Shown here: one piece after another, positions 602-34,186 of the stretch
Position numbering within the stretch: the first letter of the stretch is position 1
How the letters are laid out: each line of letters begins with the position of its first letter
IMG/VR virus record: IMGVR_UViG_3300033121_000149
Coordinates: 1-64,000 of that record
Length of the DNA: 64,000 nt
From: a virus
Direction: 5' to 3' (one strand)
Notes under the pieces: generated by a model
Told to the model about the DNA's origin: nothing
Database searches by the model: none
The model's input: only the letters and a program-made list of their open reading frames with translations
Translations under genes and position numbers: made by a program

Positions 602-811
602 ATGGAACAAGAAAATATTAGTGACGAGCTAAGGTACTCGCTATATTACTCGCTATGGAACTCGCTAAGGGACTCGCTATACGACTCGCTATGGTGCTCG
701 CTATGGGACTCGCTAAGGGACTCGCTATACTACTCGCTAAGGAACTCGCTATGGTGCTCGCTAAGGGACTCGCTATGGTGCTCGCTACGGAGGGAGTATG
801 GAGAATATTAG
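602..811 (+). repeat. MKQENIS cassette 1. Minigene (69 aa) with 13 tandem 12-bp CTCGCTA units (xxSL repeats), ends REYGEY*
   Basis: Conserved 5' ATGGAACAAGAAAATATTAGTGACGAG, 12-bp periodic array, conserved 3' GGAGGGAGTATGGAGAATATTAG. Confidence 0.85.
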
Positions 812-953
812 TAGCTCCATTCTTATACATATACGTATTAAGTTCTATAAAGAAATGAGGAAACAATTAGGTAAGAGTAAACATAATAAAATTGACGATA
901 TTTTATACGATGCTGTAAGATGTAATACAGTATCTGTTATGAATTTATTATAG
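798..953 (+). CDS. MENIS-family minigene (51 aa), start donated by cassette 3' end
   Basis: ATG inside GGAGGGAGTATGGAGAATATTAGT; stop TAG overlaps RBS of 965 gene. Confidence 0.4.
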   Translation: MENISSSILIHIRIKFYKEMRKQLGKSKHNKIDDILYDAVRCNTVSVMNLL

Positions 954-964
954 GAGAACAAACT

Positions 965-1903
965 ATGTCATTAAACAATCAGTTAATTGAAACGTTAAAG
1001 AAAGAAGCTTTAGACTATTCATTAGTGGTCAATAAGAAAACAGTAGAGAGTAATGTGCGAACATTATTCAATTCTATTTATCAACTAAAGAATAGAACAC
1101 TCAATAAAGTTGAGATACTTCCTTCACCTAAAGCAGTGCAAGATAGAGCGAATGAACTAACTAAGAGTAGTTCCAAGACTGTTCAAAGTAATATCTCACA
1201 TAATTCACTAGCACCTATTGTCCAATGTTATAGGTATCTAATGAAAGAACATAGTGATAAAACTAACGAAACATATAAGAATATTGTAGATAATTTTGAT
1301 TGTTATTTCTACGCTGTTGCATTATCCGATACTGTACTAGTGAGTGAGTTTCCTACCTTCATTCAAGTAGATAGTCAACATAGATTACATAATCTTAATG
1401 GTGCGTCTATGAGATTTAAAGATGGCTTCGAAACATTCCACTTTTCGGGTAACGTAGTAGATAAAGAATTAGCTTTAACACCTGTTGAGAAAGTTACTGC
1501 TGATATGTTAGCTAAAATTTCTAATGCTGATATACGTCGAGACTTCATTCAGAAAGTAGGTACATCACGATTAGTAAAGATACTTAACTTCAAGACAATC
1601 GAAGAAGCTTTAGGTTATAGACTGATAGAGTTCAAGGTAGTTAATGAAACTCATAAATATTTAATGATGGTGAATCCATCTATGAGTGATGAGCTACTAG
1701 AGTTTAGCGATGAGATCAGTGAGATATTCTACGACAACATGGATAATAATCCTAAATGGGTAGTTCATGTCGAAGGTGTTGACGATAATTGTAAGACAGT
1801 TATTGACGCTCTTAAATGTAGAAATGGCAAAATTAGTCCCAGAAAGGGCTTTGAAATTTCTTTAGAAAAGCCTGATAATTTTCTACCGAATCAACTAACA
1901 TAG
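965..1903 (+). CDS. hypothetical protein (312 aa)
   Basis: Long ORF, RBS GGAGAA. Confidence 0.65.
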   Translation: MSLNNQLIETLKKEALDYSLVVNKKTVESNVRTLFNSIYQLKNRTLNKVEILPSPKAVQDRANELTKSSSKTVQSNISHNSLAPIVQCYRYLMKEHSDKTNETYKNIVDNFDCYFYAVALSDTVLVSEFPTFIQVDSQHRLHNLNGASMRFKDGFETFHFSGNVVDKELALTPVEKVTADMLAKISNADIRRDFIQKVGTSRLVKILNFKTIEEALGYRLIEFKVVNETHKYLMMVNPSMSDELLEFSDEISEIFYDNMDNNPKWVVHVEGVDDNCKTVIDALKCRNGKISPRKGFEISLEKPDNFLPNQLT

Positions 1904-1910
1904 GAGTATT

Positions 1911-2030
1911 ATGAAAATATTATTATTGCTATCTATGACATTGTTTGTGTCATGTGTGACATGTAAAACTAAACTAAGTAATAGAGATACTATGTTGGAT
2001 AATATGACGAATAGAAGTACTATTAGATAG
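1911..2030 (+). CDS. putative lipoprotein minigene (39 aa; LFVSC lipobox-like signal)
   Basis: TAGGAG RBS, hydrophobic N-terminus followed by Cys. Confidence 0.3.
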   Translation: MKILLLLSMTLFVSCVTCKTKLSNRDTMLDNMTNRSTIR

Positions 2031-2037
2031 GTAATAT

Positions 2038-2307
2038 ATGAAACAAGAAAATATAAGTGACGAGTTATGGTACTCGCTAGGGAACTCGCTAAGGGACTCG
2101 CTATGGGACTCGCTAGGGAACTCGCTAGAGGACTCGCTATGGTACTCGCTAGGGAACTCGCTATGGTACTCGCTAAGGGTCTCGCTAAGGGTCTCGCTAT
2201 GGTACTCGCTAAGGGACTCGCTAGGGAAATCGCTATGGAACTCGCTAAGGTACTCGCTATGGGACTCGCTATTGAACTCGCTATGGATAGAGTATGGAGA
2301 ATATTAG
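2038..2307 (+). repeat. MKQENIS cassette 2. Minigene (89 aa) with 18 tandem 12-bp CTCGCTA units
   Basis: Same conserved 5' and 3' ends; 12-bp periodicity. Confidence 0.85.
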
Positions 2308-2416
2308 CGAGGATCTACGTGATTGTTTAACGTGGTGTCTATGTTGGGAAATGGAAGCTGATAATTATTTTATAAGACATACAATTAAGGAGGTACTATG
2401 CAAAAAGTTATTTTAG
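2294..2416 (+). CDS. MENIS-family minigene (40 aa)
   Basis: ATG within cassette 3' end; overlaps next gene start. Confidence 0.35.
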   Translation: MENISEDLRDCLTWCLCWEMEADNYFIRHTIKEVLCKKLF

Positions 2417-2742
2417 GAAAAGCTGAACAACAAGGTGACGTGTTAATGTTTCCAGTGGTTAATCACGATGAAGTATTAAAGGTACTTACTAATGGTAAGT
2501 CTACAATGTTAGTACATCAAACGACGCATCAATCTAATCAGCATCGTATTAAGAAAGGTACTATGACACAGTTTGATGGTGACTTCTTTCTCACAGGTTC
2601 AAGTGAGGTGCAAGTAACACACGTTGAACATGATAGAGATGGCGAGACTCCATTGGTATTAAGTCCAAACACTCTTTACTTAAAGGAGATTGTAAATGAA
2701 TTTGACCACATCGCAAACGAACTTAGAAAAGTTATCGACTAA
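2398..2742 (+). CDS. hypothetical protein (114 aa)
   Basis: AAGGAGG RBS 8 nt upstream. Confidence 0.65.
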   Translation: MQKVILGKAEQQGDVLMFPVVNHDEVLKVLTNGKSTMLVHQTTHQSNQHRIKKGTMTQFDGDFFLTGSSEVQVTHVEHDRDGETPLVLSPNTLYLKEIVNEFDHIANELRKVID

Positions 2743-2884
2743 TATATCATATGAGTTAGAAAGTCAGCTAAGAATGTTATTAGTGTGTGACTTAAGAGAC
2801 TTAGAGAACCATGAGATATTCTCACCAATAAAAGCTTTCATTCCTTTACATAGAAAGTTGTATAGACTATTGGATAATATATGA
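2696..2884 (+). CDS. hypothetical protein (62 aa)
   Basis: AGGAGATTGTAAATG RBS; stop overlaps next ATG (ATGA). Confidence 0.5.
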   Translation: MNLTTSQTNLEKLSTNISYELESQLRMLLVCDLRDLENHEIFSPIKAFIPLHRKLYRLLDNI

Positions 2885-3054
2885 AACAAGAAAACATAAG
2901 TGACGAGTTATGGTGCTCGCTATACGACTCGCTATGGTGCTCGCTATGGGACTCGCTAAGGGACTCGCTATGGTACTCGCTAGGGAACTCGCTATGGTAC
3001 TCGCTAAGGGACTCGCTATGGTACTCGCTACGGAGGGAGTATGGAGAATATTAG
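2881..3054 (+). repeat. MKQENIS cassette 3. Minigene (57 aa) with 10 repeat units
   Basis: Conserved ends, CTCGCTA 12-mers. Confidence 0.85.
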
Positions 3055-3184
3055 CTATGAACTAGGTTCAGAGTTAAGAAATGAACTATTCTATTCACTA
3101 TGGGATAATATCGGATATTATAGAACAGATAAATTAACACAAAACATTAATCAATTAATGGTGACTATATGGAAAATTATCTAG
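3041..3184 (+). CDS. MENIS-family minigene (47 aa, contains YSLWDN)
   Basis: ATG from cassette end; overlaps ATG 3169. Confidence 0.35.
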   Translation: MENISYELGSELRNELFYSLWDNIGYYRTDKLTQNINQLMVTIWKII

Positions 3185-3792
3185 TAAGAAATTCTAAGAT
3201 GATGGAATCAAGTGAACGAATATTTAATTTCGGTATTCCTGCTTATAAATCTAAGTCGGGTTTAATAACCTGTCCTTCAGCAGGTATATGTAAGAACGGC
3301 TGTTATGCAACTATGGGTACTTACATATGGGAGCAAGTTCAGAACGCATATGAACGAAGATTAAAATTAACACAAAGTAAAAAGTTTAGTGATGTTATTT
3401 CGGAAGAAATTCAACGTCGTGATATTAAGTATGTTAGAATACATGATAGTGGTGACTTCTATAATTCAGAGTATTTGAGTAAATGGATCAAGGTTATGGA
3501 ACTTAATCCATCGGTTACATTTTACGCATATACTAAACAAGTTAAGTTACTTAAATCATTTGTACTACCTGATAATTTCAAAGTGATATATTCATTCGGT
3601 GGCAAGCAAGACAAGTTAATTAATACTAAATGTGATAGACATAGTAAGGTGTTTATGAATGAAACTGAATTAAAAGAAGCTGGTTATGTAGATGCTTCAA
3701 AAAATGATGCAGTTGCTTTTCAAAATATTTCTAAAAAAATAGGTTTAATTTATCATGGGTATAAATCAAGAGGTGAAGTATGGAAGAACTAA
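3169..3792 (+). CDS. Cys-motif protein (207 aa; C-x5-C-x3-C-YA), possibly DUF5131/Gp37-Gp68-like
   Basis: Motif TCPSAGICKNGCYA read in translation; family assignment unverified. Confidence 0.55.
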   Translation: MENYLVRNSKMMESSERIFNFGIPAYKSKSGLITCPSAGICKNGCYATMGTYIWEQVQNAYERRLKLTQSKKFSDVISEEIQRRDIKYVRIHDSGDFYNSEYLSKWIKVMELNPSVTFYAYTKQVKLLKSFVLPDNFKVIYSFGGKQDKLINTKCDRHSKVFMNETELKEAGYVDASKNDAVAFQNISKKIGLIYHGYKSRGEVWKN

Positions 3793-4001
3793 AACAAAAA
3801 TTTAGAAAACTTTGTGGTAGAATGTCATACTATGAAGCGAGTGAAGGTTCCTCTTACAATCAAGAGGAAAAAGAAAGAAACGAATGTAATGTTGAGTTAC
3901 GTAAGGTAGCTCAAGAACTCCTTAGTAAAGGAGTAACTAAACAAGAGTTACAAGAGCTTTCATCTAATACATTAATGACTGAACGAATATATTTACAATA
4001 G
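3780..4001 (+). CDS. hypothetical protein (73 aa)
   Basis: ORF overlapping previous stop. Confidence 0.45.
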   Translation: MEELKQKFRKLCGRMSYYEASEGSSYNQEEKERNECNVELRKVAQELLSKGVTKQELQELSSNTLMTERIYLQ

Positions 4002-4010
4002 AGTTAGTAT

Positions 4011-4518
4011 ATGGAAAATATTAGTAGTATTCTGTTCTTAGAACTATACTTCGGTATTGGTAACGATTCTAGTTTACTATACAGTGATATATCGTATTCA
4101 TTTGATGATGTAGTTAAAAAAATAAGGATAGATTATGGAGAATATTAGCATAGAGTTAGGAGACTTTCTTTGGTATTGGTTACAACATGAAACATATTAC
4201 AAACTAAATACTCGTATTTATAACGAATTAATGTTTATGAGATTAAAATTAAATAATGTTAGGTTTAGATTATGACCAATATATCAGATGAACTAAAACA
4301 ATATCTCTATTACAATTTACATAATCCATGTTGTAATACTATATTCTGGATTGAATACTGGAACATGAGAGAAGAGTTCAGTAATACGAGGTATTATGCA
4401 GAACATTAGTAAAGAGTTAGATAACTATGTGTGGTCTATACTTTCCAGAGAAATAGACGACGATTCAAGAATATTATTATATTACTTATACAATAAATTA
4501 GGTCGTAAATATATGTAA
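4011..4518 (+). other. Chain of four MxNIS-family minigenes (4011-4148, 4135-4275, 4272-4409, 4396-4518; 40-46 aa each) linked by stop/start overlaps
   Basis: Each begins ATG-GAR/ACC/CAG-AAY-ATT-AGY (MENIS/MTNIS/MQNIS) followed by xEL; first ends IDYGEY* like cassettes. Confidence 0.4.
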
Positions 4519-4527
4519 GGAGTAACT

Positions 4528-6369
4528 ATGCTATTAAATTCCAATGCAGTATCTATTGAAACGAATTTAGATCGATCACAATCAACGTCATTTGGTATAG
4601 GTGACGTTAGTGTTATTATTGAAATTCTTAGAAGTAAGATGTACACTAATCCTGTTCAAACATCAGTACAGGAATATATCTGTAATGGTAGAGATGCTAT
4701 GCGTGAAGCTAAAACATTCAGTATAACACCTTTAGAAATATGTGTACCTAATACGTTTAAGCCAACGTTTAAAGTACGTGACTTTGGTGTAGGTCTTTCA
4801 CCTGAAAGGGTACGTGATGTATTTGTTATGTATGGTAGTTCAACTAAACGTGGTGACAATGGACAGACAGGTGGATTCGGTATCGGTGCTAAGTCAGCAT
4901 GGGCATACACTGATTCATTCACTATTACTTCATTCTATAATGGAATACGTTATGAATATGTAGCTCACCTTGGAGGGAATAATTCTGGTGTACTTGATAT
5001 TATCTCCAAGACAGAAACGACTGAACCTAATGGTGTATCAGTAGAGTTCGCAGTTAAACCTAATGATGTTAATACTTTTAAGGAAGCTATCTTTAGATGT
5101 ATTAGATACTGGAGTCCTAGTAGTTACAAGTTACTAGGTACTGTTGACTTCATAGTTCCTAAGATACTTATTGAAACTGATGATATTATAGTGTTACCTT
5201 ATGAGAAAGTAAACAACATTAATGGATTCATTATCGATAATATTGTTTATCCTAATATTAAACAGGAGGGTAGTTGGCAAGAGTATCACGTATCTGGATT
5301 GTCTGGAAGATTTCTTTTGAAATTTAAAACAGGTGAGATTGATATAAATCCTAACAGAGAATCTATTATTAATAATACTAAAAATCACGAAGTTATTAAA
5401 AGAAAAATAAAGAGTGTTGAATCCTTTATACAAAAAGAACGTGATGAAGTATTAAAACACGTAAATAAATCAGCTAAAAATATTCTAAACGAGTTTAAGA
5501 AAAGACCTTGGTTAATTATTAATGGTGTTGATCTAGGTAATAATTTTATACTTGATTCAACTAAAATTAGATTACCTTTTAAAGTGATTATGAAAGGGTT
5601 AAGTAGACGAGGTAGTAAGAAAACTATTCTAGTTGATTATATTGATCACGATCAAACTATCTACGTTCAATCACTTACTGATAGCGACAATCAATTCACT
5701 AGAAAGGTTGCACCTTTTGTTAATAGTGTAAGTAATATAGTTCAATTAACTTCTGATAAATATAGTAAATGTAAAGATTATCTGGTAGGTAATGTAATCA
5801 TGTCAGATACTTTAGAGTTACCTAAAATTAAAAAGAAAGTTAAAGGTAGTAGTCAATTTGTAGATGGTATTGTCTATAGTGTTGATAGATATGGTGCTAG
5901 AACACAATACAATATATCTAAAATTAGAACATTATCCAATGCTTACGAGTTACCCGACGATATAACAGATCAAGTTGAACGTAATAGAATACTACAGTTA
6001 GGTTCATTTCTTGATGTTGAACTTATCCAAGTTCCTAAAATACATAAAGGAAAATTACCTAACTTGAAACCTATTACAGAACTTGATACTCTATTATTGC
6101 AATACAAGTCTAATGCTATCTTTGATGGTTATAATGTAAACATTCTTAAACTAATTAGAGAAGGATACTTAACTACTAAGATTCCTTTAAATACTTCGTT
6201 GTCTATTAAAGTTCCGTCATTAAATTTATTTAAAGATAAAGCTGTAGTTAAAGAGATTAATGATAGTAGAGAAACATTGAATAAGTTTATTGAATCTAAT
6301 CCTGTATTCAAAACCAATGCTGGTTTAGGTACTATTAAGTTTTATGTTAAGAGAGGTAAGACAGTATGA
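4528..6369 (+). CDS. GHKL-superfamily ATPase (613 aa), Bergerat fold motifs, no TOPRIM seen
   Basis: N-box EYICNGRDA, G1 box DFGVGLS, G2 box GGFGIGAKSAWA in N-terminal 130 aa; TAAGGAG RBS. Confidence 0.6.
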   Translation: MLLNSNAVSIETNLDRSQSTSFGIGDVSVIIEILRSKMYTNPVQTSVQEYICNGRDAMREAKTFSITPLEICVPNTFKPTFKVRDFGVGLSPERVRDVFVMYGSSTKRGDNGQTGGFGIGAKSAWAYTDSFTITSFYNGIRYEYVAHLGGNNSGVLDIISKTETTEPNGVSVEFAVKPNDVNTFKEAIFRCIRYWSPSSYKLLGTVDFIVPKILIETDDIIVLPYEKVNNINGFIIDNIVYPNIKQEGSWQEYHVSGLSGRFLLKFKTGEIDINPNRESIINNTKNHEVIKRKIKSVESFIQKERDEVLKHVNKSAKNILNEFKKRPWLIINGVDLGNNFILDSTKIRLPFKVIMKGLSRRGSKKTILVDYIDHDQTIYVQSLTDSDNQFTRKVAPFVNSVSNIVQLTSDKYSKCKDYLVGNVIMSDTLELPKIKKKVKGSSQFVDGIVYSVDRYGARTQYNISKIRTLSNAYELPDDITDQVERNRILQLGSFLDVELIQVPKIHKGKLPNLKPITELDTLLLQYKSNAIFDGYNVNILKLIREGYLTTKIPLNTSLSIKVPSLNLFKDKAVVKEINDSRETLNKFIESNPVFKTNAGLGTIKFYVKRGKTV

Positions 6370-6536
6370 AACAAGAAAACATAAGTAACGAGTTATGGTG
6401 CTCGCTATGGAACTCGCTAGGGGTCTCGCTAAGGGACTCGCTAGGGGTCTCGCTAAGGAACTCGCTATGGAACTCGCTAGAGGACTCGCTATGGAACTCC
6501 CTACGGAGGGAATATGAATTTGTGGTTATTATCTAA
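6366..6536 (+). repeat. MKQENIS cassette 4. Minigene (56 aa), 9 repeat units, divergent 3' end (REYEFVVII*)
   Basis: ATGA overlap with GHKL stop; CTCGCTA 12-mers. Confidence 0.8.
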
Positions 6537-6569
6537 TGTACGAAATTATTTAAACAATAGGAGATTATT

Positions 6570-7397
6570 ATGAACTTTATTATTTTACCTAGTTCTTTAG
6601 TATTAAACAATGGTAAAGGTTCTTCTGTTACAATTAAAAAAGAGGACGCTCGTTTTGAAAAAATTATAGAGTTACTTAAGAGTGGAGCAACAGATGAAGA
6701 AATCGAAAAACTTATTAATATCGAAGAGCAACTTGAAAAGGAAGGGTTTACTGTTGAGCATGGTCTTGTACAGATTGATGGCAAACCTGTACCTGAAGTT
6801 ATAGGTCAACGTATCTTGGAGTTTTATAAACTAAACTTACCTTACAAACATCTAGTTAAGTTTGTTCGTAAATTACGTAACAATCCAAGCTTTAATAGTA
6901 TTCAAATGTTGTACAAATTCTTAGAACATAACGGACACCCAATCACTACGGAAGGTAACTTTATCGCTTATAAAGCAGTAAGACCGAACTTCTTAGATAT
7001 ACATACAGGTAAGTTTGATAATAGCGTAGGTAATATTGTATCAATGGAACGTAGTTCAGTTGATGATAATCCAGAGAATACTTGTTCGTCAGGATTACAC
7101 GTTGCTACTCTAGGTTATGCTCAAAGTTTTGGTGGATATGACAGCATCTTGATTGATGTTGAAATCGATCCTGCTGATGTAGTATCAGTACCTAAAGATT
7201 ACGATGGTACTAAGATGCGAACTTGTAAGTATAAAGTAGTAGCTGTTAATACTGCTAAAAGAATTATCGAATCACCTTTAGTTGATTCAAGTTATGCTGA
7301 AGGTTATGATATACCCGATGACAAAGAATGTCCTAACTGTGGAGCTGATGTAGACGAGTTCGATTCTTTCTGTAAAGATTGTGGTGAAGAGTTATGA
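6570..7397 (+). CDS. hypothetical protein (275 aa) with C-terminal CxxC...CxxC zinc ribbon
   Basis: AGGAGA RBS; CPNCG...CKDCG at C-terminus. Confidence 0.65.
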   Translation: MNFIILPSSLVLNNGKGSSVTIKKEDARFEKIIELLKSGATDEEIEKLINIEEQLEKEGFTVEHGLVQIDGKPVPEVIGQRILEFYKLNLPYKHLVKFVRKLRNNPSFNSIQMLYKFLEHNGHPITTEGNFIAYKAVRPNFLDIHTGKFDNSVGNIVSMERSSVDDNPENTCSSGLHVATLGYAQSFGGYDSILIDVEIDPADVVSVPKDYDGTKMRTCKYKVVAVNTAKRIIESPLVDSSYAEGYDIPDDKECPNCGADVDEFDSFCKDCGEEL

Positions 7398-7528
7398 AAA
7401 AGCAACAGAATATTAGCGTCGAGTTATACCAGATGATTGACCATAGATTGTACAACTCTAATATAGAGATTATAAATCATCTATATTGGGAGATCTGGGA
7501 TAACCTCCATAATTTATTCATAAAATAG
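7394..7528 (+). CDS. MKQENIS-family minigene without tandem array (MKKQQNISVELY, 44 aa)
   Basis: ATGA overlap; N-terminal family motif. Confidence 0.4.
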   Translation: MKKQQNISVELYQMIDHRLYNSNIEIINHLYWEIWDNLHNLFIK

Positions 7529-7550
7529 TCCCATCGTTTCAAATTCAATT

Positions 7551-7580
7551 CTTTAAAAGAAACCCTTTTTATTTTAGGAG
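7551..7580 (+). promoter_or_regulatory. conserved about 30-bp motif TTTAAAAGAAA-NNN-TTTTTATTTTA directly upstream of RBS (copy 1 of 3)
   Basis: Near-identical copies at 7551, 10505, 11945. Confidence 0.4.
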
Positions 7581-7585
7581 ATACC

Positions 7586-7819
7586 ATGAGTAAATTATAC
7601 TTCAATAGTGATGGTAGTGTTAGTTCTTTTAGTGACGAATTACATGAGTATTATACAACAGTGTTTAGTATATCAGAAGATGACGTTCAGACATTAGCCG
7701 AAGGTAATATAGGTAGGCGATTAACAGAAAATGAAATGAATAGGTTTAGATCTAAGTTTACTGTAGAGGATTGGACTGAAATCGTATTAGATACTATAGG
7801 AAATATAAAGGAGTTTTAA
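7586..7819 (+). CDS. hypothetical protein (77 aa)
   Basis: Preceded by conserved AAAAGAAACCCTTTTTATTTTAGGAG motif. Confidence 0.55.
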   Translation: MSKLYFNSDGSVSSFSDELHEYYTTVFSISEDDVQTLAEGNIGRRLTENEMNRFRSKFTVEDWTEIVLDTIGNIKEF

Positions 7820-7822
7820 TAT

Positions 7823-8068
7823 ATGAAAATATTTAAAATACCTCCTGCTGAATTTAAAGTACTGATGTATCTAAAAACACTAGACTTATCTCAAATGTAT
7901 TGTATCCAGTTTATTGCAGACAATACAAGATTAAGTTTTAAGACAACTAATAAAGCAATACAATGGTTAGAGTACTTCAATATTATTAATAGAAGTATAA
8001 CACGTAATAAGTACACTAAAAATGGTACTGTGTATGTAATAAACTCGGAGGAGTTATGGAAAATATAA
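7823..8068 (+). CDS. hypothetical protein (81 aa)
   Basis: AGGAG RBS. Confidence 0.55.
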   Translation: MKIFKIPPAEFKVLMYLKTLDLSQMYCIQFIADNTRLSFKTTNKAIQWLEYFNIINRSITRNKYTKNGTVYVINSEELWKI

Positions 8069-8217
8069 GTAATGATCTTTATATTGAACTTAGTAATAGT
8101 TTATGGTATTGTTTTGGTAGTATAACAAACTCTTTAGTTTATCGTGTATTTATTTACGATGCTAGTTTTCCACATCATAGAACAGTAAAACAGATATTAC
8201 AAGGTATGACAGTATGA
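8056..8217 (+). CDS. MENIS-family minigene (53 aa; MENISNDLY...SNSLWY)
   Basis: GGAGGAGTT RBS; protein-level xSLx motifs without DNA tandem. Confidence 0.4.
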   Translation: MENISNDLYIELSNSLWYCFGSITNSLVYRVFIYDASFPHHRTVKQILQGMTV

Positions 8218-8423
8218 AACAAGAAAATATAAGTAACGAGTTAAGGAACTCGCTATGGAACTCGCTATACGACTCGCTATACTACTCGCTATGGGACTCG
8301 CTAGGGAACTCGCTATGGGACTCGCTAGGGAACTCGCTATGGAACTCGCTATGGGACTCGCTAGGGAACTCGCTATGGAACTCGCTATACTACTCGCTAT
8401 GGAGGGAGTATGGAGAATATTAG
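8214..8423 (+). repeat. MKQENIS cassette 5. Minigene (69 aa), 13 repeat units
   Basis: Conserved ends; ATGA overlap. Confidence 0.85.
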
Positions 8424-8580
8424 CATAGAATTACGTAATGATTTATTCAATAACATGCTCTGGAATAATCGTTACTTATTAACATATACTGTAATACATA
8501 CTTTATACTCTAAGTTAAGGGATACACTCAATGATCCAAAGGAAAAATATGTTTTATCCGACTATAAAATACGTAGCTAA
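8410..8580 (+). CDS. MENIS-family minigene (56 aa)
   Basis: ATG within cassette 3' end. Confidence 0.35.
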   Translation: MENISIELRNDLFNNMLWNNRYLLTYTVIHTLYSKLRDTLNDPKEKYVLSDYKIRS

Positions 8581-9016
8581 TCCACAGTTTAACGGAATGT
8601 ATATTCCTGAAAACGATACCATCATCATTAAACAAGGACTTCCTGATAGATGGAAAGAATACGTTATTAACCATGAGTTATATCACGCATCGGGACATAC
8701 TGAACGTAATAACCGATATACACTAACACACTTTAACGATCTAGCTATAAACAGAATACATGAAGAGTTATTCGCTGATACATTAGCGTATATTATAGAT
8801 ACTTGTAGATATGGACAAGATACTTGTATTACTTATCAATGGAAATACTACATAATAACACAATCTCGATCAACTTTCGATGATATTAAACTAGATTACA
8901 ATGATTTATATCAAGCTCTAGACTACTTCTTTGAAGGAGAGTATAATGAAAAAGTGTTTAATAACTGTAAACAATTTATAGAGAAGGTAATATATGAAAC
9001 AAGAAAACATAAGTGA
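8531..9016 (+). CDS. HExxH zinc-metallopeptidase-like small protein (161 aa; HELYHASGH); alternative start 8549
   Basis: HExxH motif; AAAGGAAAAAT RBS before 8549 ATG. Confidence 0.5.
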   Translation: MIQRKNMFYPTIKYVANPQFNGMYIPENDTIIIKQGLPDRWKEYVINHELYHASGHTERNNRYTLTHFNDLAINRIHEELFADTLAYIIDTCRYGQDTCITYQWKYYIITQSRSTFDDIKLDYNDLYQALDYFFEGEYNEKVFNNCKQFIEKVIYETRKHK

Positions 9017-9155
9017 CGAGTTATGGGTCTCGCTAGGGAACTCGCTATGGAACTCGCTATACGACTCGCTATACTACTCGCTAGGGTACTCGCTAAGGAA
9101 CTCGCTATGTAACTCGCTAAGGAACTCGCTACGGAGGGAGTATGGAGAATATTAG
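8994..9155 (+). repeat. MKQENIS cassette 6. Minigene (53 aa), 9 repeat units
   Basis: Conserved ends. Confidence 0.85.
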
Positions 9156-9300
9156 TGACGATCTACGTATACTTGTACATAATAAGTTATGTGATGAAAT
9201 ATTTCATAGACATTCAAAATATGTTGAAACAGATGGTATTAACATGATGTTATACAGTAGAATAAAATTAAGAGGAGGGTTTATATGGACGAACTATTAA
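9142..9300 (+). CDS. MENIS-family minigene (52 aa)
   Basis: ATG in cassette end. Confidence 0.35.
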   Translation: MENISDDLRILVHNKLCDEIFHRHSKYVETDGINMMLYSRIKLRGGFIWTNY

Positions 9301-9500
9301 AAGAAGTAAGATTAACTGTTAATAAAGAAGTAGCTCATAGTTTACAATTAATTAGAGAAGAACAACGTGAAGGATCTATTGAAACGGAAGATGACTTGAA
9401 TCAGTTAATTGATAGAGATCTATTCTTCGATATAGACGATCTTACTGGTAGTATATGTAAAGAGATTCGCCGACTTATTCGGAAAGAACTTAAACGATAG
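9285..9500 (+). CDS. hypothetical protein (71 aa)
   Basis: GAGGAGGG RBS. Confidence 0.55.
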   Translation: MDELLKEVRLTVNKEVAHSLQLIREEQREGSIETEDDLNQLIDRDLFFDIDDLTGSICKEIRRLIRKELKR

Positions 9501-9508
9501 GAGTATTT

Positions 9509-9778
9509 ATGAATGGATTTCAATTAGGGTTAGCTATTGTACTAGAATCAGTAACAGTTAGGTTACAAAAACGTATAGAGAGTAGAGATATTCTAGATAC
9601 ACCTTTCGATATGATTGAGAGGGAAATTAAAGAAATGAGAGCTGAGTACGAAGCAGTTAAGGAACAGTTTGAGAATATGTCAACCGAAGAAAAGCAACGA
9701 GAAATTGATAAGGTGTTGAACTCGTTAGAAGAACAAGGTATTGTTAAGAAAGATGTAAACAAAGGCGAATTACAATGA
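9509..9778 (+). CDS. hypothetical protein (89 aa)
   Basis: TAGGAG RBS. Confidence 0.55.
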   Translation: MNGFQLGLAIVLESVTVRLQKRIESRDILDTPFDMIEREIKEMRAEYEAVKEQFENMSTEEKQREIDKVLNSLEEQGIVKKDVNKGELQ

Positions 9779-9945
9779 CAGTATTATTAGCATTAATTTC
9801 TGTAACTATTGCAGTATTGTTGAGTCCTTCAGTAAGGTTAGTATTATTACTACCATTTATGACACTTTTCAAGTATACTATGTTAGTAGTATCCAGTGAT
9901 ATTGGATTAGTGTTAATTGCGATAGTTACGAGATTATTATGGTAA
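9775..9945 (+). CDS. small membrane protein (56 aa, two hydrophobic segments)
   Basis: ATGA overlap; hydrophobic translation MTVLLALISVTIAVLL. Confidence 0.4.
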   Translation: MTVLLALISVTIAVLLSPSVRLVLLLPFMTLFKYTMLVVSSDIGLVLIAIVTRLLW

Positions 9946-10145
9946 AGCGTAAAAAGAAACGTGTTCAAGTCAAGGACGACGAGATAAAGATTCCTAAGAC
10001 AGTAATCGATTCCAAGATGGAGTCGATTCATGTTAGTAATATTCATATGGATGCTTGGGTCGACACTGACACAGTATTCTATTGGATGTCCGAGGAAGAT
10101 TTACTAGACACGTTTCATTTTGCGTATGCTTCTTACGAGGAGTAG
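9939..10145 (+). CDS. hypothetical protein (68 aa)
   Basis: ORF. Confidence 0.45.
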   Translation: MVKRKKKRVQVKDDEIKIPKTVIDSKMESIHVSNIHMDAWVDTDTVFYWMSEEDLLDTFHFAYASYEE

Positions 10146-10151
10146 TATTAT

Positions 10152-10409
10152 ATGGTTAGTAGAATTAAATACGAACGTAGATCTGACGTTAATAACGAGT
10201 ACTGTACACCTCTCTACGTACTTCTAGGTGAGATAGTATACGGTTATGTTACACCTTCAACGTATGGTGTTAAATACCTACGTGGTGATATTATCTATCA
10301 TAACACATGTGATAATCTACGTCAAGGTAAAAGTAAATTAAAAAAGAAATTAGTAGAGTTAGGTGTTGTATTTTACGAGGAAGTTAGAAGTGGACGTAGT
10401 ACTCCTTAA
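10152..10409 (+). CDS. hypothetical protein (85 aa)
   Basis: ORF with GAGGAG upstream. Confidence 0.5.
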   Translation: MVSRIKYERRSDVNNEYCTPLYVLLGEIVYGYVTPSTYGVKYLRGDIIYHNTCDNLRQGKSKLKKKLVELGVVFYEEVRSGRSTP

Positions 10410-10504
10410 ATTTAGATACACAATACTCTCGATCTTTTAAAGTTTTTATCCACGTTACTAGTATAGTATACGTTAAAAAATGATGTCAAGCGTTATTTTA
10501 AAGT

Positions 10505-10535
10505 TTTTTAAAAGAAACGTTATTTTATAAGAGGT
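10505..10535 (+). promoter_or_regulatory. conserved upstream motif copy 2
   Basis: TTTTTTAAAAGAAACGTTATTTTATAAGAGG. Confidence 0.4.
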
Positions 10536-10540
10536 TATGT

Positions 10541-10801
10541 ATGTCGATAACAAAACAATGGAAAGTAACAGATTGGGGACAGATTCCAGACACTCCTGTT
10601 TACGGTGGACGTAATAAACCAGAGGTTGTAAACTCTATAGATCAGAAATACTGTAATCATGAATGGAAGGAAATACTCTTACTAAATACTACAGTGTATA
10701 ACTGTAAACACTGTGATAAAAAGAAAGAAGATTATGAAAAAGAACAGAAAGAGTCAAGCACTACCGAGTGGAAGACTGATTGGCGTGATTACATTTATTA
10801 A
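10541..10801 (+). CDS. hypothetical zinc-ribbon protein (86 aa)
   Basis: CNHEW...CKHC; preceded by conserved AAAAGAAACGTTATTTTATAAGAGG motif. Confidence 0.5.
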   Translation: MSITKQWKVTDWGQIPDTPVYGGRNKPEVVNSIDQKYCNHEWKEILLLNTTVYNCKHCDKKKEDYEKEQKESSTTEWKTDWRDYIY

Positions 10802-10825
10802 CATGTTACTTGCTTTTACAGCTAG

Positions 10826-11107
10826 TTGTATGTTAACATTAATATTATTTATACTAATGATGAGGTTGGTATGGTAAAGAGAAGAGTTGTTTTAAGACGT
10901 TTAAAACAGAAGAAACAAGTAGAAGATCATGGTAGAATGTTTTGTGAGTACTGTGATAAAACAGTATACGAACGAAATAGTATACATAGACAACACGATG
11001 ATGCTACTGCAGATCACATAATACCACGTGCCAAGGGTGGTAAAGATACGTATGATAATATAGCAGTATGTTGTTGGGAATGTAACTGGCAAAAGAGAGA
11101 TTCATAA
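10826..11107 (+). CDS. HNH endonuclease (93 aa)
   Basis: CEYC...DHIIP...DNIAVCCWECNWQK HNH signature. Confidence 0.6.
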   Translation: MYVNINIIYTNDEVGMVKRRVVLRRLKQKKQVEDHGRMFCEYCDKTVYERNSIHRQHDDATADHIIPRAKGGKDTYDNIAVCCWECNWQKRDS

Positions 11108-11337
11108 TGAATAATAATGACGATGATAATAAAGAAGTAACGTGTATTTATTGTGGTAATGATTGGGAAGGATTAGCAGTATGTCGTATGTGTCAAGCTC
11201 ATATATGCGATCAATGTCAAAAAAATGTGTACCCTGAAGAACCTAGTGAATATGTACATGTTGACAGTCGTAAGTCTTATTTTTTATGTCAGAAGTGTGG
11301 GATAAAACATGCTCAGTTTTATGTTCCTATACTATAG
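11107..11337 (+). CDS. Cys-rich zinc-finger protein (76 aa)
   Basis: Multiple CxxC pairs. Confidence 0.5.
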   Translation: MNNNDDDNKEVTCIYCGNDWEGLAVCRMCQAHICDQCQKNVYPEEPSEYVHVDSRKSYFLCQKCGIKHAQFYVPIL

Positions 11338-11349
11338 AGAAGGTAATAT

Positions 11350-11526
11350 ATGAAACAAAAAAATATAAGTGACGAGTTAAGTGATGAATTAACAGCCTCG
11401 CTATGGGACTCGCTAAGGGACTCGCTATGGTACTCGCTAGGGAACTCGCTATGGTACTCGCTATACGATTGGCTAGGGAACTCGCTATGTAGGGAGTATG
11501 AATTTAATAACAAGGAGAATGTATGA
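11350..11526 (+). repeat. MKQENIS cassette 7 (degenerate; MKQKNISDEL, about 8 units, divergent 3' end)
   Basis: Conserved 5' end; CTCGCTA units; ATGA overlap at 11523. Confidence 0.75.
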
Positions 11527-11915
11527 AACAATTAGTATTAATGTCATTATTATGTACAACATTAACAGGGTGTGGAAAGTGGTATGCAAGTTGGCAAGGT
11601 GAGATAGCTAAAATCGAAAAACAAAAATCAGGTGAAGCTCAGTTATTAGAGGCTGAAAACACTAAACGTATTGCTATTGAAGACGCTAAGGCTAAGTTAG
11701 AGTCAGCTCGATTATTAGCTCAAGCTGAAGTTGAACGTGCAAAGGGTGTAGCAGAAGCTAATCAGATTATTGGAGATAGCTTAAAAGGTAACGAAGCGTA
11801 TTTACGTTATTTATATATCTCGAATTTAGAAAAAGCAGAATCGAATGGATCTGTTAACACTATTTACATTCCAACAGAAGCAGGATTACCTATTTTAGAG
11901 GCTAGGAATAAGTAA
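11523..11915 (+). CDS. lipoprotein (130 aa) with SPFH/HflC-like C-terminal region
   Basis: Signal LMSLLCTTLTGC lipobox; AEAERAKGVAEA...AYLRYLYI resembles SPFH C-terminus. Confidence 0.5.
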   Translation: MKQLVLMSLLCTTLTGCGKWYASWQGEIAKIEKQKSGEAQLLEAENTKRIAIEDAKAKLESARLLAQAEVERAKGVAEANQIIGDSLKGNEAYLRYLYISNLEKAESNGSVNTIYIPTEAGLPILEARNK

Positions 11916-11944
11916 AATTGATCCCAAGTGATTTGAATTGTATT

Positions 11945-11975
11945 TTTAAAAAGAAAGGGTTTTTATTTTTAGAGG
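11945..11975 (+). promoter_or_regulatory. conserved upstream motif copy 3
   Basis: TTTTAAAAAGAAAGGGTTTTTATTTTTAGAGG. Confidence 0.4.
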
Positions 11976-11979
11976 TGTT

Positions 11980-12417
11980 ATGGAATTAGTTTACAAAAAA
12001 GGTGATTTATTACAAGCCATGCGAGATAAAGAGGTCGATCATATTATACATGGTTGTAACTCTTTAGGAGTTATGGGTTCAGGTATCGCTAAACAGATTC
12101 GTGATGAATATCCTAAATGTTTTGAAGTGTATAAGAATGGAGTTCTTAGATTAGGTTGGAGTAGTCATTACAAAGATGGAGAAGCTAGTATATTTAATCT
12201 AATAACACAATCAGACTTTCATCCTAGAACAGTTAGACATTGTAATTACGAAGCTCTCGCTGTTGGATTACATGATCTTAATGAATTATATGCTGGATCA
12301 CATTTTGGCTTACCTAAGATTGGCGCAGGACTAGGTGGTGGTGATTGGAATGTTATAGAAGCGATAATAAAAAGCGAAATGAAGGACTGTAAGGTAACTA
12401 TCTATACATTGGAGTAA
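11980..12417 (+). CDS. Macro domain protein (ADP-ribose binding/hydrolase)
   Basis: IIHGCNSLGVMGSGIA and GLPKIGAGLGGGDW macro motifs; conserved upstream motif. Confidence 0.65.
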   Translation: MELVYKKGDLLQAMRDKEVDHIIHGCNSLGVMGSGIAKQIRDEYPKCFEVYKNGVLRLGWSSHYKDGEASIFNLITQSDFHPRTVRHCNYEALAVGLHDLNELYAGSHFGLPKIGAGLGGGDWNVIEAIIKSEMKDCKVTIYTLE

Positions 12418-20319: not shown

Positions 20320-20351
20320 TGACTTACTAGTTATGAGAGGTATAATTTAAC

Positions 20352-21553: not shown

Positions 21554-21578
21554 ATATATCTTCTATATGGAGGGTATT

Positions 21579-24810: not shown

Positions 24811-24948
24811 ATGAAACAAGTTAATATAAGTGACGAGTTATGGTACTCGCTAGAGGACTCGCTATGGAACTCGCTAGAGGACTCGCTATGGAACTCGCTA
24901 GAGGACTCGCTATGGAACTCCCTACGGAGGGAATATGGAGAATATTAA
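24811..24948 (+). repeat. MKQENIS cassette 10. Minigene (45 aa), 7 repeat units
   Basis: Conserved ends. Confidence 0.85.
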
Positions 24949-25081
24949 CAAAGAATTAGATACATTAATATATTCACAATTATATGAATTTTTAGTACAA
25001 CATATTGGTGTATGGGGGTCGTTTAGTTGTGTGTTAGAGTTTAATAGAAATAGATTAGAAGGAGAAATTGTTAATGAGTAA
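24935..25081 (+). CDS. MENIS-family minigene (MENINKEL, 48 aa)
   Basis: ATG in cassette end; overlaps RNR start. Confidence 0.35.
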   Translation: MENINKELDTLIYSQLYEFLVQHIGVWGSFSCVLEFNRNRLEGEIVNE

Positions 25082-26879: not shown

Positions 26880-27041
26880 ATGAAACAAGTTAATATAAGT
26901 GACGAGTTAAGGCGCTCGCTAGGGAACTCGCTATGGCACTCGTTAGGGTACTCGCTAATGAACTCGCTATGGCACTCGTTAGGGTACTCGCTAAGGAACT
27001 CGCTAGGGTACTCGCTACGGAGGGAGTATGGAGAATATTAG
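26880..27041 (+). repeat. MKQENIS cassette 11. Minigene (53 aa), 9 repeat units (some CTCGTTA variants)
   Basis: Conserved ends. Confidence 0.85.
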
Positions 27042-27159
27042 CAAAGAATTAGATATTGCTATGTGGACAAACTTACGTCAATGTCTAAGTACTTTACCAC
27101 GTGGAGGACATCGGTTGTGGTGTCATTTTAGAAAACTACCATTAAAGGATATTATATGA
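27028..27159 (+). CDS. MENIS-family minigene (43 aa)
   Basis: ATGA overlap with nuclease gene. Confidence 0.35.
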   Translation: MENISKELDIAMWTNLRQCLSTLPRGGHRLWCHFRKLPLKDII

Positions 27160-32096: not shown

Positions 32097-32147
32097 CGGA
32101 ATTACAGAATGTAGTTTATGTAGACAAGAAACTCGGAGTGATGATTA

Positions 32148-32429
32148 ATGAAACGTAGTCTTATGTTGGAACAAATTGAAGAATTACTAACACCTCCTGT
32201 ATCAATAGACGATGATGAACCATGTGTTACAGTTGAACAACTTCGATATAATAAAGAGTTAGCTGACATCATACTAACTAGATTAGAAGATATGGGAATG
32301 CAACCGCCTCCAGTTAAAGCACGTATTATTAGAGGTGAGAACTATAAGTTTGGTAGTGGTTGTACTATGAGATGTGTATGTGATCAATGCGATCCAAACT
32401 TTCTGATGAATAAATGGGAGAAAGAATGA
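32148..32429 (+). CDS. hypothetical protein (93 aa)
   Basis: ORF. Confidence 0.5.
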   Translation: MKRSLMLEQIEELLTPPVSIDDDEPCVTVEQLRYNKELADIILTRLEDMGMQPPPVKARIIRGENYKFGSGCTMRCVCDQCDPNFLMNKWEKE

Positions 32430-32746
32430 ACTTTATTACATATTTTATACCGATAGTTTTTCTACTAGTATTATTCGTAATGGATAGTTATCACTATCAA
32501 AAACGTATCGATGAATTAGAAGAAAAACTTTTTATCAGTGAATTTAAACATTATGACACAAGTGATTTAACTAAAGAGGAACTTATTAATTTTATAGACC
32601 ATGCTCTTTTATGTGATGGTGTTTTATGGTATAGTTATGATGACGGTCCTCAAATTAAACCAGCATCGGATACTAAGGATATTGCTAAGTTTTTAGTACA
32701 TTCTTTAGAAAGTGTTAACGCTTTAAAAAAATATCAACCGGAGTAA
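32426..32746 (+). CDS. membrane protein (about 106 aa)
   Basis: GGGAGAAAGAATG RBS, N-terminal TM. Confidence 0.5.
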   Translation: MNFITYFIPIVFLLVLFVMDSYHYQKRIDELEEKLFISEFKHYDTSDLTKEELINFIDHALLCDGVLWYSYDDGPQIKPASDTKDIAKFLVHSLESVNALKKYQPE

Positions 32747-32749
32747 ATT

Positions 32750-32950
32750 ATGAAACTACATTTTTTAACACCTAACTTAGGGAAATTTCTACATGACGAT
32801 GGAGGTTACTCTTTTAGAGATGGTTACAGACTTAGTTTTGTAACAGAAATAATGTATTTAAAAGAATTTGAAAGACCTAACTGGATCTCTATTCAAGTAC
32901 TAGGATTCGGTATAGGTGTAAGTTGGGGTGGTGACGAGGATTGTATATGA
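32750..32950 (+). CDS. hypothetical protein (66 aa)
   Basis: ORF. Confidence 0.45.
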   Translation: MKLHFLTPNLGKFLHDDGGYSFRDGYRLSFVTEIMYLKEFERPNWISIQVLGFGIGVSWGGDEDCI

Positions 32951-33318
32951 AACTAATTATAGCAGGTAGTAGAACTTTACAAGTAGACAATGAATTTATA
33001 AAGAGTGTAATTCTAAATCTATTACCAGATGAAGCTTTAACTGGAATGAAGATTGTATCAGGTTGTGCTAAAGGGATAGATAAATGTGGAGAGTGTTTTT
33101 CTTTAGCTAATAAATTAGATTGTGAAAAGTTCCCTGCTGATTGGGATACACACGGTAAAGCCGCTGGAATGATTCGTAATAAACAAATGGCTGAGTATGC
33201 AGATGTTTTACTACTTATATGGGACGGTGAAAGTAAGGGTAGTAGACATATGAAAGAAACTATGTTAAAGTTAGGTAAGCCTGTTTACGAGGTAGTAATT
33301 AGGAGTTATAACGTATGA
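32941..33318 (+). CDS. SLOG/DUF2493-like Rossmann-fold protein (125 aa)
   Basis: IIAGSR...SGCAKGIDK...ADWDTHGKAAGMIRNKQM...WDGESKGSRHM pattern. Confidence 0.5.
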   Translation: MYMKLIIAGSRTLQVDNEFIKSVILNLLPDEALTGMKIVSGCAKGIDKCGECFSLANKLDCEKFPADWDTHGKAAGMIRNKQMAEYADVLLLIWDGESKGSRHMKETMLKLGKPVYEVVIRSYNV

Positions 33319-33611
33319 ATAAGAATTATCAAGGTCTTTATATAAGTAAAGACGGTAATATATATGGTAGATTAAGTAAGACTTTATGGACTAAACTATT
33401 TCATAGATTTGGCGGTTATAATTACATAATGTATAATATCGCACCAGTTTACGATTTTGATAATTACAGTACTTTCTTTAGAGAACTTGACGACGATGAA
33501 ATTGCTCACTTATTAGTAATAAATTATGAAGAAGATGTTATTAGAGATATGAAACAGAAGCATGATAAAAATAAAGAAATAATTATGGATATGTTGAGGT
33601 TTGATAAATGA
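33315..33611 (+). CDS. hypothetical protein (98 aa)
   Basis: ORF. Confidence 0.5.
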   Translation: MNKNYQGLYISKDGNIYGRLSKTLWTKLFHRFGGYNYIMYNIAPVYDFDNYSTFFRELDDDEIAHLLVINYEEDVIRDMKQKHDKNKEIIMDMLRFDK

Positions 33612-34124
33612 ATCTACGACTAACTAAATTCACAGATACCAACACTCATATCTCCGTAACACCAATGTCTTCCACGTTTACAATTAAGTATTGTGAAATA
33701 CCTAGACTTGTGTTATTCTTAGTGAAGGCTTATGTAAGGGGTAAGTTATGATCGATAAAGAGCTTGTAAAATTCTTCAGTAAATTTAAAGACGAAGACTT
33801 AGAAGCTGCTTATATTTTAACTATGGTTATTGCTAACTTTAAAAAGTTATCTAAAACGGAAGAATTTAGGTTACTGTTATTAACAAGTGAGTTGTGTTAT
33901 CGGGGATTGTTATGAAACAGAATATAGTAAACAAACTTGAAATAAATAATGCCATTTCACAGCTAAAAGAAATCAATTTGAAAATTGAATCCTATAATAA
34001 TCAAAATGAATGCGATGAAGAGTTAGAATTGTTTTTAGAATCTGAACAGAAAAGACTAATCAAATTTTTAACAATAAATGTAATGGGATCAAATGTTGTA
34101 ATTATTCCAAGAGGATCAGCATGA
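33608..34124 (+). other. Three ATGA-linked minigenes (33608-33751, 33748-33915, 33912-34124)
   Basis: Overlapping stop/start chain. Confidence 0.35.
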
Positions 34125-34186
34125 AACAAAAAAATATTAGTGACGAGTTAAGTGACTCGCTATGGAGGGAGTATGGAGAATATTAA
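34121..34186 (+). repeat. MKQENIS cassette 12, minimal form (21 aa: MKQKNISDELSDSLWREYGEY*) with a single repeat unit
   Basis: Both conserved ends present around one CTCGCTA unit. Confidence 0.8.

Follow-up and report, generated by a model that had tools for sequence, protein, structure and literature searches.

What are the 12-bp tandem arrays scattered between positions 602 and 34186 of this phage DNA: binding sites, portable starts for translation, selfish repeats or genes for a repeat peptide? The window analyzed here is a stretch of 64,000 nt, read on one strand (positions 1-64,000 of the IMG/VR record IMGVR_UViG_3300033121_000149), from a large uncultured phage; its G+C content is 32.7%. 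The elements, here called cassettes, join a conserved head, a variable number of 12-bp units and a conserved tail. We consider it probable that they are recently amplified, paralogous small coding genes, free-standing copies of a repeat module found in proteins with the domain DUF6745 (PF20530), and that they are variable interaction modules working with a DUF6745 protein.

Architecture and turnover of the cassettes

The original prediction described twelve elements with about 118 units, and this inventory holds in nearly every detail. The 30-bp head occurs 13 times at up to three mismatches, always on the + strand (0 expected). Twelve copies are at the sites listed earlier and the thirteenth, at 18869, opens a diverged paralog that has a head but no array. 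The 23-bp 3′ end occurs 11 times, again only on the + strand (0 expected). It had been assigned to every element, and it is intact after ten arrays; the ends of arrays 6366 and 11350 are degenerate (RREYEFVVII-stop and CREYEFNNKENV-stop). The eleventh copy, at 4126, belongs to a decayed cassette (4011-4148). Tandem Repeats Finder returns twelve 12-bp arrays, which hold 13, 18, 10, 9, 13, 9, 8, 12, 9, 7, 9 and 1 units in order of position (counted in register). These 118 units comprise 26 DNA types and 24 peptide types.

Read from the head ATG, each element encodes M-K-Q-x-N-I-S-D/N-E-L, n tetrapeptides of the form [W/R/G/Y][N/D/Y/C/V]-Ser-Leu, and R-E-Y-G-E-Y-stop. Head, array and tail share one frame behind a purine-rich Shine-Dalgarno (SD) site, the start codons are kept, and the head MKQENISDEL is itself a degenerate repeat. 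The members, with product lengths in amino acids (aa), are:

602-811, + strand: cassette gene, 69 aa, MEQENISDEL, 13 xxSL units and RREYGEY-stop
2038-2307, + strand: cassette gene, 89 aa, 18 units, tail WIEYGEY-stop
2881-3054, + strand: cassette gene, 57 aa, 10 units
6366-6536, + strand: cassette gene, 56 aa, 9 units, degenerate tail, without an intact MENIS gene downstream
8214-8423, + strand: cassette gene, 69 aa, 13 units
8994-9155, + strand: cassette gene, 53 aa, 9 units
11350-11526, + strand: cassette gene, 58 aa, duplicated SDEL head, 8 units, degenerate tail
12422-12619, + strand: cassette gene, 65 aa, 12 units
18869-19048, + strand: head-only paralog MKQQNISDEL, 59 aa, period-4 Leu pattern, no perfect array
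20158-20319, + strand: cassette gene, 53 aa, 9 units, followed by a 14-aa MENIS remnant at 20306
24811-24948, + strand: cassette gene, 45 aa, 7 units, with a 24-bp higher-order repeat
26880-27041, + strand: cassette gene, 53 aa, 9 units, holding both TTA variants
34121-34186, + strand: minimal cassette, 21 aa, 1 unit, whose tail provides the SD site and ATG of a nucleotidyltransferase-like gene (34173-34808, MENIKKK)

Every array lies in frame inside an open reading frame (ORF), all on one strand and none intergenic, and the 118 units contain no stop or frameshift. ATGA coupling to the upstream gene, proposed as a constant feature, applies to 4 of 13 cassettes; the others show gaps of 1-12 nt or a 23-nt overlap. 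Not all of the family lies in the window, since an independent JGI assembly (L010) carries an extra cassette at 1444-1605 (MKQENISNEL, 9 units and RREYGEY-stop), ~0.5 kb upstream of the window start. Searches of the cassette peptides and the associated minigenes against Pfam, PHROGs and NCBIfam gave nothing meaningful.

The consensus unit is TGG AAC TCG CTA and the family pattern [T/A/G]GG [A/G/T]AC TCG CTA. Variation is concentrated at nucleotide positions 1 and 4 (1.5-1.7 bits), with at most 0.14 bits at each of positions 6-12; A is found at position 12 in 118/118 units and is nearly invariant at position 5. The first residue, tallied in 110 units, is W in 45, R in 28 and G in 18, and positions 3-4 read S-L in 117/118 units. 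Differences from the consensus number 184 non-synonymous versus 4 synonymous. Synonymous Ser and Leu variants, said to be lacking, are therefore rare and not absent (TCC twice, TTA twice); TAT/TAC also occur, and the heads differ synonymously as AAT/AAC, ATA/ATT and TTA/CTA/TTG. The second codon, described as always ending in C, does so in 116 of 118 units, with two exceptions. The NAC codons (Asn/Asp/Tyr/His, read by queuosine tRNAs) stood out beside the tRNA-repair genes, but a freely varying first base of the NAY codon explains them, and other lineages use NAT or other codons.

The array codons are rare in this phage (TCG is 6% of Ser, CTA 14% of Leu, AGG 4% of Arg and GGG 6% of Gly), and the units have ~58% G+C in a genome of ~33%. 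Different arrays share eleven blocks of three units, versus 1.7 expected from shuffled arrays, some shared blocks reach 5 units, and several arrays have higher-order periods of 24-48 bp. Together, the shared blocks, the rare codons, the few synonymous changes and the higher-order periods point to recent expansion. The cassette copies have evolved in concert, with multi-unit blocks in common, and very recent concerted evolution, which had been offered as one of two explanations, accounts for the uniform codons within the genome.

The arrays were also predicted to be hypervariable in copy number. In other phages, orthologs with 98-100% identical flanks carry 24 versus 25 units, 28 versus 52, or 52 versus 52 at 70% identity, while the constant codons are unchanged between them; arrays that differ so much despite such flanks are hypervariable. 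This does not extend to the two assemblies of the window phage, which are identical. L010, the only close relative found, is collinear with the window over 2.9 kb and base-for-base identical through arrays 602 and 2038, which rules out an assembly artefact. The 19 single-nucleotide differences and one 3-nt indel between the two all fall in window 31-388 (two small genes), and the next 2.5 kb are identical, suggesting the boundary of a recombination mosaic near window position 400.

Four independent short-read contigs, L010, L011, L064 and L065, all end inside cassettes (at window 2884, 2079, 20187 and 11398/12445, respectively); the cassettes fragment short-read assemblies. Public gene calls on L010 at 2691-2894 and 4103-4366 (window 655-858 and 2067-2330) use an alternative open frame, xxLA. 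An exact-product look-up of cassette 2038 returned no record, probably because gene callers took the xxLA frame, as they did on L010. Assembly breaks and wrong-frame calls are thus part of the reason that protein databases hardly reveal the family.

Within the cassettes, ACGAGT of the head can pair with ACTCG of the first unit to form a hairpin of 5-9 bp ~25 nt past the start codon. Such sites (2060-2077, 2903-2920, 6386-6407, 8234-8255, 9016-9033 and 12444-12461) were flagged by the scan as terminator-like on the - strand, and the hairpin could affect the mRNA or promote slippage. An RNA element was rejected as improbable: in an Rfam scan the sole match at the gathering score was the tRNA-His at 16897, and the cassettes match no RNA family. 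A miniature inverted-repeat transposable element or insertion sequence was likewise rejected, as no terminal inverted repeats surround the cassettes (one weak pair is probably due to chance).

Homologous arrays and the DUF6745 module

Other lineages were reached by a DNA-pattern scan and a protein search. Unrelated viral contigs carry genes of the same plan, a conserved head, a variable number of tetrapeptides and a conserved tail that overlaps the start of the next gene:

L009: G+C 52%, head MKVESLKHKLMDRFG, units (R/W/Q)(D/V/Y)(S/P)L, tail RDTIDRQARTGRDEG-stop, at least 25 tandem genes
L008: G+C 47.5%, head MKYNLGKPV.., units xxSL, tail EEDNKR-stop
L052: G+C 48%, head MFCVSNDDL, units xxSL, tail QSVYKGVEYVLCV-stop
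L002/L004: G+C 35%, head MNKINDSV, units xxSV, tail RDYFEQK-stop, more than 25 genes

As an exact DNA pattern, the 23-bp 3′ end of the window cassettes has no match in IMG/VR. The Ser and Leu codons are TCG CTA in the window, TCG CTG in L052 and AGT CTC in L008. L009 mixes TCG/TCT/TCA with CTG/CTA/TTG, the constant codons of L002 are TCT GTA and those of L066-68 TCA CTT/CTC, and CAG CTG and TCGGTC occur among those of further homologous arrays. The residue preferences (W/R/G, then D/N/Y.., S/N/Q and L/V) recur in lineages of 26-67% G+C. Since different codons specify the same residues across lineages, the peptide is conserved and the DNA is not. The original prediction had named synonymous Ser and Leu codons in homologous arrays as the observation that would favor a peptide function, and of the options it listed, a family of xxSL-repeat peptides is the one that these arrays bear out. 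Comparison across lineages establishes the reading frame and its conservation at the peptide level, and the rival xxLA frame appears not to be conserved in them.

A function of the DNA itself had also been proposed, with phased CTCGCTA acting as iterons or as decoy sites for a DNA-binding protein of phage or host. The heptamer is nearly invariant, third codon positions included, is phased at exactly 12 bp and is confined to the arrays (all 112 occurrences lie within cassettes, with one reverse-complement match). However, homologous arrays use synonymous or wholly different Ser and Leu/Val codons, so that the constant DNA elsewhere reads TCGCTG, AGTCTC, TCTGTA, TCACTY, CAGCTG or TCGGTC at the same peptide periodicity. 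The arrays of the window all lie in frame inside ORFs on one strand, and no replication-initiator or origin context was seen. We regard this explanation as very unlikely.

The link to a known domain is a gene between cassettes 602 and 2038:

965-1903, + strand: array-less DUF6745 (PF20530) gene, PF20530 match with E 6e-10

The cassettes are physically linked to this DUF6745 gene, and the neighborhood recurs elsewhere, as DUF6745 genes adjoin the minigene rows of L052, L002 and L008. Stand-alone rows are present in five lineages (the window and four others), and four of these five also have a DUF6745 gene next to the row; in all three lineages where that gene is readable in full, it is array-less.

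A word-indexed search with the window DUF6745 protein found only the protein itself, and its homologs needed an exhaustive HMMER search. This yielded 1803 DUF6745 homologs. At least 23 of the best 150 have an array of the form [G/R/W/D/Y/H]-[S/D/A/N/G]-[Q/S/N]-[L/V] in their interior, with ~80 N-terminal aa before it and the DUF6745 part after it. Using the repeat alone as query (two sets of six 8-residue repeat peptides), a scan of IMG/VR confirmed 290 contigs with xxSV and 12 with xxSL. In 70 of the 92 IMG/VR loci kept, the array (8-59 units, median 27) lies inside an ORF positive for the DUF6745 hidden Markov model; stand-alone minigenes occur in 3/92. About 16 of the loci have a second complete architecture, composed of a varied N-domain, the array and a C-domain of ~60 aa, and six further array ORFs are cut by the locus end. 

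The second architecture (L066-L068, L095, L108, L119, L122, L124, L128, L133, L135, L143-L150 and L158) runs from the N-domain through HPF..PP....LLK, the array and RAY.GS.F to the C-domain with GLVPSFDG..W.LH. The similar protein of L066-68 combines DUF7666 (in L066 and L068), an array and a short C-domain.

The fused form also exists among deposited phages. A tblastn search with cassette 2038 against 50,697 phage records returned a single record, gp38 of Mycobacterium phage prophiGD102-1 (MW584211.1, 'hypothetical protein'), a fused protein with ~50 units of [WRG][GD]QL; the match (E 3e-13, 44% identity over 94% of the query) is between low-complexity sequences. The gp38 array region (L062 3932-5377) matches PHROG 3311 and 22557 (81 and 136 positions), and stand-alone repeat proteins may also occur among deposited phages. 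The array-less form is represented by PHROG 31813 (Microcystis phage Ma-LMM01 gp174). Further relatives lie on contigs binned with metagenome-assembled genomes of Treponemataceae, Nitrospirota, Hermodarchaeota (Asgard) and Woesearchaeota. The contigs binned with the last two are L057 and L060. The module occupies 5388-6468 of L060, and on L057 (5338-7183) a ~70-unit ORF ([WRGE]xNL) overlaps the start of an array-less DUF6745 gene, which may reflect a recent split or a frameshift.

Aligned with the window DUF6745 protein, fused homologs have their arrays at its residues 67-73, the sole low-confidence stretch before residue 240 in the AF2 model of the window protein (pLDDT 85.9, pTM 0.78). The residues that come next, QSNISHNSL, are similar to the QENISDEL of cassette heads, and where the array of a fused protein ends, the junction (S[LV]R.YF.. 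or ..YGQHD) resembles the tails REYGEY-stop and RDYFEQK-stop; these motifs are too short for statistics. Given the mapped position, the QSNIS/QENIS likeness and the similar junctions, the cassettes look like the repeat segment of DUF6745, freed and multiplied together with its flanks. The cassette family is homologous, or at least isomorphic, to the DUF6745 repeat module.

We propose the following course of events. In the majority of phages that carry it, the repeat module is one array of 8-59 units between N-terminal and C-terminal DUF6745 parts; less often the array stands between other domains. In the window phage and a few other lineages, the array would have come to be encoded apart from the DUF6745 gene, and with its immediate flanks would have multiplied into at least 12 stand-alone genes. 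Replication slippage, together with unequal recombination or gene conversion, could then lengthen, shorten and reshuffle arrays built from a small alphabet of units. Such exchange would erase synonymous differences while the variety at unit positions 1 and 4 stays. The free repeat peptides, variable in length and surface, may be exchangeable modules that work with the DUF6745 protein; we infer this from the fused-versus-split pattern (a Rosetta-stone argument). These modules would probably take part in the phage-host arms race, since such fast-changing arrays suggest a role in contacts between phage and host. 

Several points weigh against this reading. Translation of the cassettes is itself predicted from sequence, and the interaction in trans has the fusion/fission pattern and the gene neighborhood as its sole basis. 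Part of the similarity between such low-complexity repeats could be convergent and not homologous. AF2, run without an alignment, models the cassette repeat as one long helix (pLDDT 86.6), whereas the frequent Gly, and Pro at position 3 in L009, speak against a helix; a sequence search of the PDB gave nothing. The two assemblies of this phage have the same arrays, which leaves rapid turnover a presumption in this genome. Finally, 40 related loci reached through the ribonucleotide reductase gene carry no cassettes around it (their gene order is too diverged to define slots), and the cassettes may therefore be dispensable.

That last result would also be expected if the cassettes were selfish or neutral, slippage-prone repeat ORFs that spread by recombination and are tolerated in a plastic early region with no function of their own. 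The birth-and-death pattern with decayed copies and truncated remnants fits this view, as does the scarcity of stand-alone rows, and the rare codons and high G+C of the units suggest a recent spread. Selfish repeats do not account for the same residue preferences in lineages of such different G+C and codon choice, for the intact frames and the excess of non-synonymous changes, for heads that keep start codons and SD sites, or for the rows placed beside a DUF6745 gene in four of the five lineages. We consider a purely selfish origin unlikely.

Precursors of ribosomally synthesized and post-translationally modified peptides (leader, multi-copy core and follower), or targets of a dedicated diversification system such as a diversity-generating retroelement (DGR), would likewise combine a conserved head, a repeated core and a conserved tail in many paralogs, with variation concentrated at two nucleotide positions per unit. 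Yet the 30 larger ORFs scanned (those of at least 200 aa, within the window) encode no maturase-type or reverse-transcriptase domain, the adenines at unit positions 12 and 5 are unlike the outcome of adenine-specific DGR mutagenesis, and the arrays are normally internal to proteins of 300-500 aa. We hold either idea to be extremely unlikely.

Minigenes, junctions and neighboring genes

The cassettes are interspersed with minigenes that have similar heads and no array:

798-953, + strand: MENIS minigene, 51 aa, decayed-array paralog that starts 14 nt inside a cassette tail
2294-2416, 3041-3184, 8410-8580, 9142-9300, 12606-12743, 24935-25081 and 27028-27159, + strand: further minigenes of this class
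4011-4518, + strand: four tandem minigenes (4011-4148, 4135-4275, 4272-4409 and 4396-4518) with heads MENIS/MTNIS/MQNIS
8056-8217 and 12740-12868, + strand: further members of the 4011-4518 class

The MENIS minigenes can be recognized as decayed arrays, paralogs of the cassettes. In the 16 non-array minigenes, L/I/V/M/F occupy every fourth residue at 73%, versus 15-22% at other positions, and the minigene at 4011-4148 keeps the tail IDYGEY-stop. At least 15 further minigenes had been thought to begin inside a cassette end. About 11 ORFs do: ten with a 14-nt overlap, among them the 14-aa remnant at 20306 and the nucleotidyltransferase gene at 34173, and one more in the end of decayed cassette 4011. 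Another 16 ORFs share the M-x-N-I-(S) head. Judging from the remnants at 6523, 11500 and 20306, cassette ends may have undergone deletions.

In ten cases the tail holds GGAGGGAG and the ATG of the next gene, and the cassette head is ~85% identical to the downstream head over 20 nt, so that direct repeats flank each cassette. Such ends could be portable translation-initiation or recombination modules similar to the PeSLs (promoter-early stem-loop cassettes) of T4-type phages, supplying SD site, ATG and homology with the array as a spacer. Shuffling of small early genes through repeats is already known from PeSLs (PMC2839356, PMC4122927), and the start of the nucleotidyltransferase gene at 34173 in a cassette end would suit this proposal. 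But most of the downstream genes are decayed cassette paralogs, and tandem duplication explains the junction. Promoter-like sites are not enriched (109 vs 96 +/- 10), no promoter-like or terminator-like site on the + strand goes with the cassettes, and a role in initiation is impossible where arrays are internal to large proteins, as in other lineages. We hold a PeSL-like function to be quite unlikely, and the idea of a dedicated portable module for translation initiation is not supported. Because the downstream MENIS genes are decayed arrays, the end with its stop, SD site and ATG is an ordinary junction between tandem members of one gene family. The head on both sides of a cassette provides ~20 nt of homology for unequal exchange, which could also explain how the nucleotidyltransferase at 34173 came to start with MENI.

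The cassettes lie on the early/middle-gene strand: between 1 and ~46 kb, the + strand genes are early and metabolic ones, including nicotinamide phosphoribosyltransferase (NAMPT), PNKP, RNA ligase, ribonucleotide reductase, a DnaB-like helicase, a family-B polymerase and tRNA-His. The - strand carries large ORFs without a Pfam match (one has a sub-threshold match to an adaptor protein) that are probably virion genes. A megablast search of window 1-12000 against the 50,697 phage records found no match, and the helicase is just 23-26% identical to known phage proteins, leaving no cultured relative for comparison.

The window also encodes an RNA-repair set at 16897-16972, 19293-23004 and 34173-34808, composed of tRNA-His, PNKP (kinase and HAD phosphatase), an RlaP-like nucleotidyltransferase, RNA ligase and a CCA-adding-like nucleotidyltransferase, which suggests a countermeasure against host anticodon nucleases. 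This set would fit the idea that the cassettes are rare-codon leader peptides, whose AGG, GGG, TCG, CTA and NAC arrays sense tRNA supply and gate the coupled downstream gene. The rarity of the array codons and the 14-nt overlap with the downstream start agree with such a role. In other lineages, however, the codons are common for their G+C (TCT GTA in L002, TCA CTT in L066-68), rows of at least 25 genes contain no 'real' gene to regulate, and arrays fused inside DUF6745 proteins cannot be leaders. Regulation by leader peptides therefore seems extremely unlikely.

NAMPT (13674-15179) follows a gene with a weak phosphoribosyltransferase match (12853-13677), and the two (12853-15179) look like a phage NAD+ salvage pair. 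Such pairs counter host defenses that deplete NAD. At 538 aa, the family-B DNA polymerase ORF (35628-38050 region) is short and encodes an exonuclease domain but just part of a polymerase domain; a 236-aa ORF without a Pfam match follows, and the polymerase may be split or interrupted.

Comparison with known repeat systems

Iterons are noncoding phased direct repeats, situated at origins, whose DNA sequence itself is conserved. Phased short repeats are common to both, but the arrays of the window run in frame through coding genes, and conservation extends to their peptide alone. TAL (transcription activator-like) effectors with their repeat-variable diresidues, pentatricopeptide-repeat (PPR) proteins and pentapeptide-repeat proteins combine a constant scaffold with hypervariable residues in each repeat. 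The cassettes share with the TAL and PPR type a constant scaffold, two variable residues and a variable array length; their repeat has four residues and no sequence relationship to these proteins. By analogy, the array could be a programmable recognition scaffold whose two variable residues per unit read successive units of a polymeric target (for example a nucleic acid, a cell-wall polymer or a repetitive host protein) in a TAL-effector- or PPR-like code. We think this rather improbable; if it were true, at least 12 slippage-diversified free arrays would plug into one DUF6745 core and give combinatorial specificity against host defenses.

The PeSLs of T4-type phages are non-coding promoter-plus-terminator units (Arbiol et al. 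2010, PMC2839356; PMC4122927). What they have in common with the cassette ends is that short conserved sequences recur among small, non-essential early genes, where they can promote modular exchange through recombination. In the window, the conserved ends are instead coding (head and tail) and carry no promoter or terminator signal.

The amino-acid tandem repeats (aaTRs) of Borgs are near-perfect nucleotide tandem repeats in ORFs, with units divisible by three and rapid evolution, and their homologs carry repeats of similar composition (Schoelmerich et al. 2023, PMC9879509). The 12-bp units of the window are also divisible by three and lie within ORFs. Borg aaTRs arose independently at many unrelated sites and are enriched in A (PMC9879509), whereas the window has one unit family with a common head and tail, forming a dispersed gene family that is G+C-rich relative to the genome, and this one repeat type is conserved as a peptide across many phage lineages.

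The closest known counterparts are the fused DUF6745 proteins, which like the window have a W/R/G-rich position 1, D/N/G/A.. at position 2, S/N/Q at position 3, L/V at position 4, a variable number of units and a similar post-array junction. They differ in carrying one array within a protein of 300-500 aa, where the window has at least 12 separate genes of 21-89 aa and an array-less DUF6745 protein. The statement that no equivalent had been described stands for the searchable literature, in which we found nothing relevant on DUF6745, PF20530, the repeat strings or phage tetrapeptide repeats. It does not stand for the databases, which hold the repeat module inside many Pfam DUF6745 proteins. 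What is new is the split, amplified and dispersed form in the window; the module itself was already there under a DUF label. A suspected non-coding element is thus replaced by a protein module that is apparently widespread. Its wholesale array change at 98-100% flank identity is the signature expected under diversifying pressure from a host, and the fused-versus-split distribution gives an orphan minigene family a concrete candidate partner, DUF6745.

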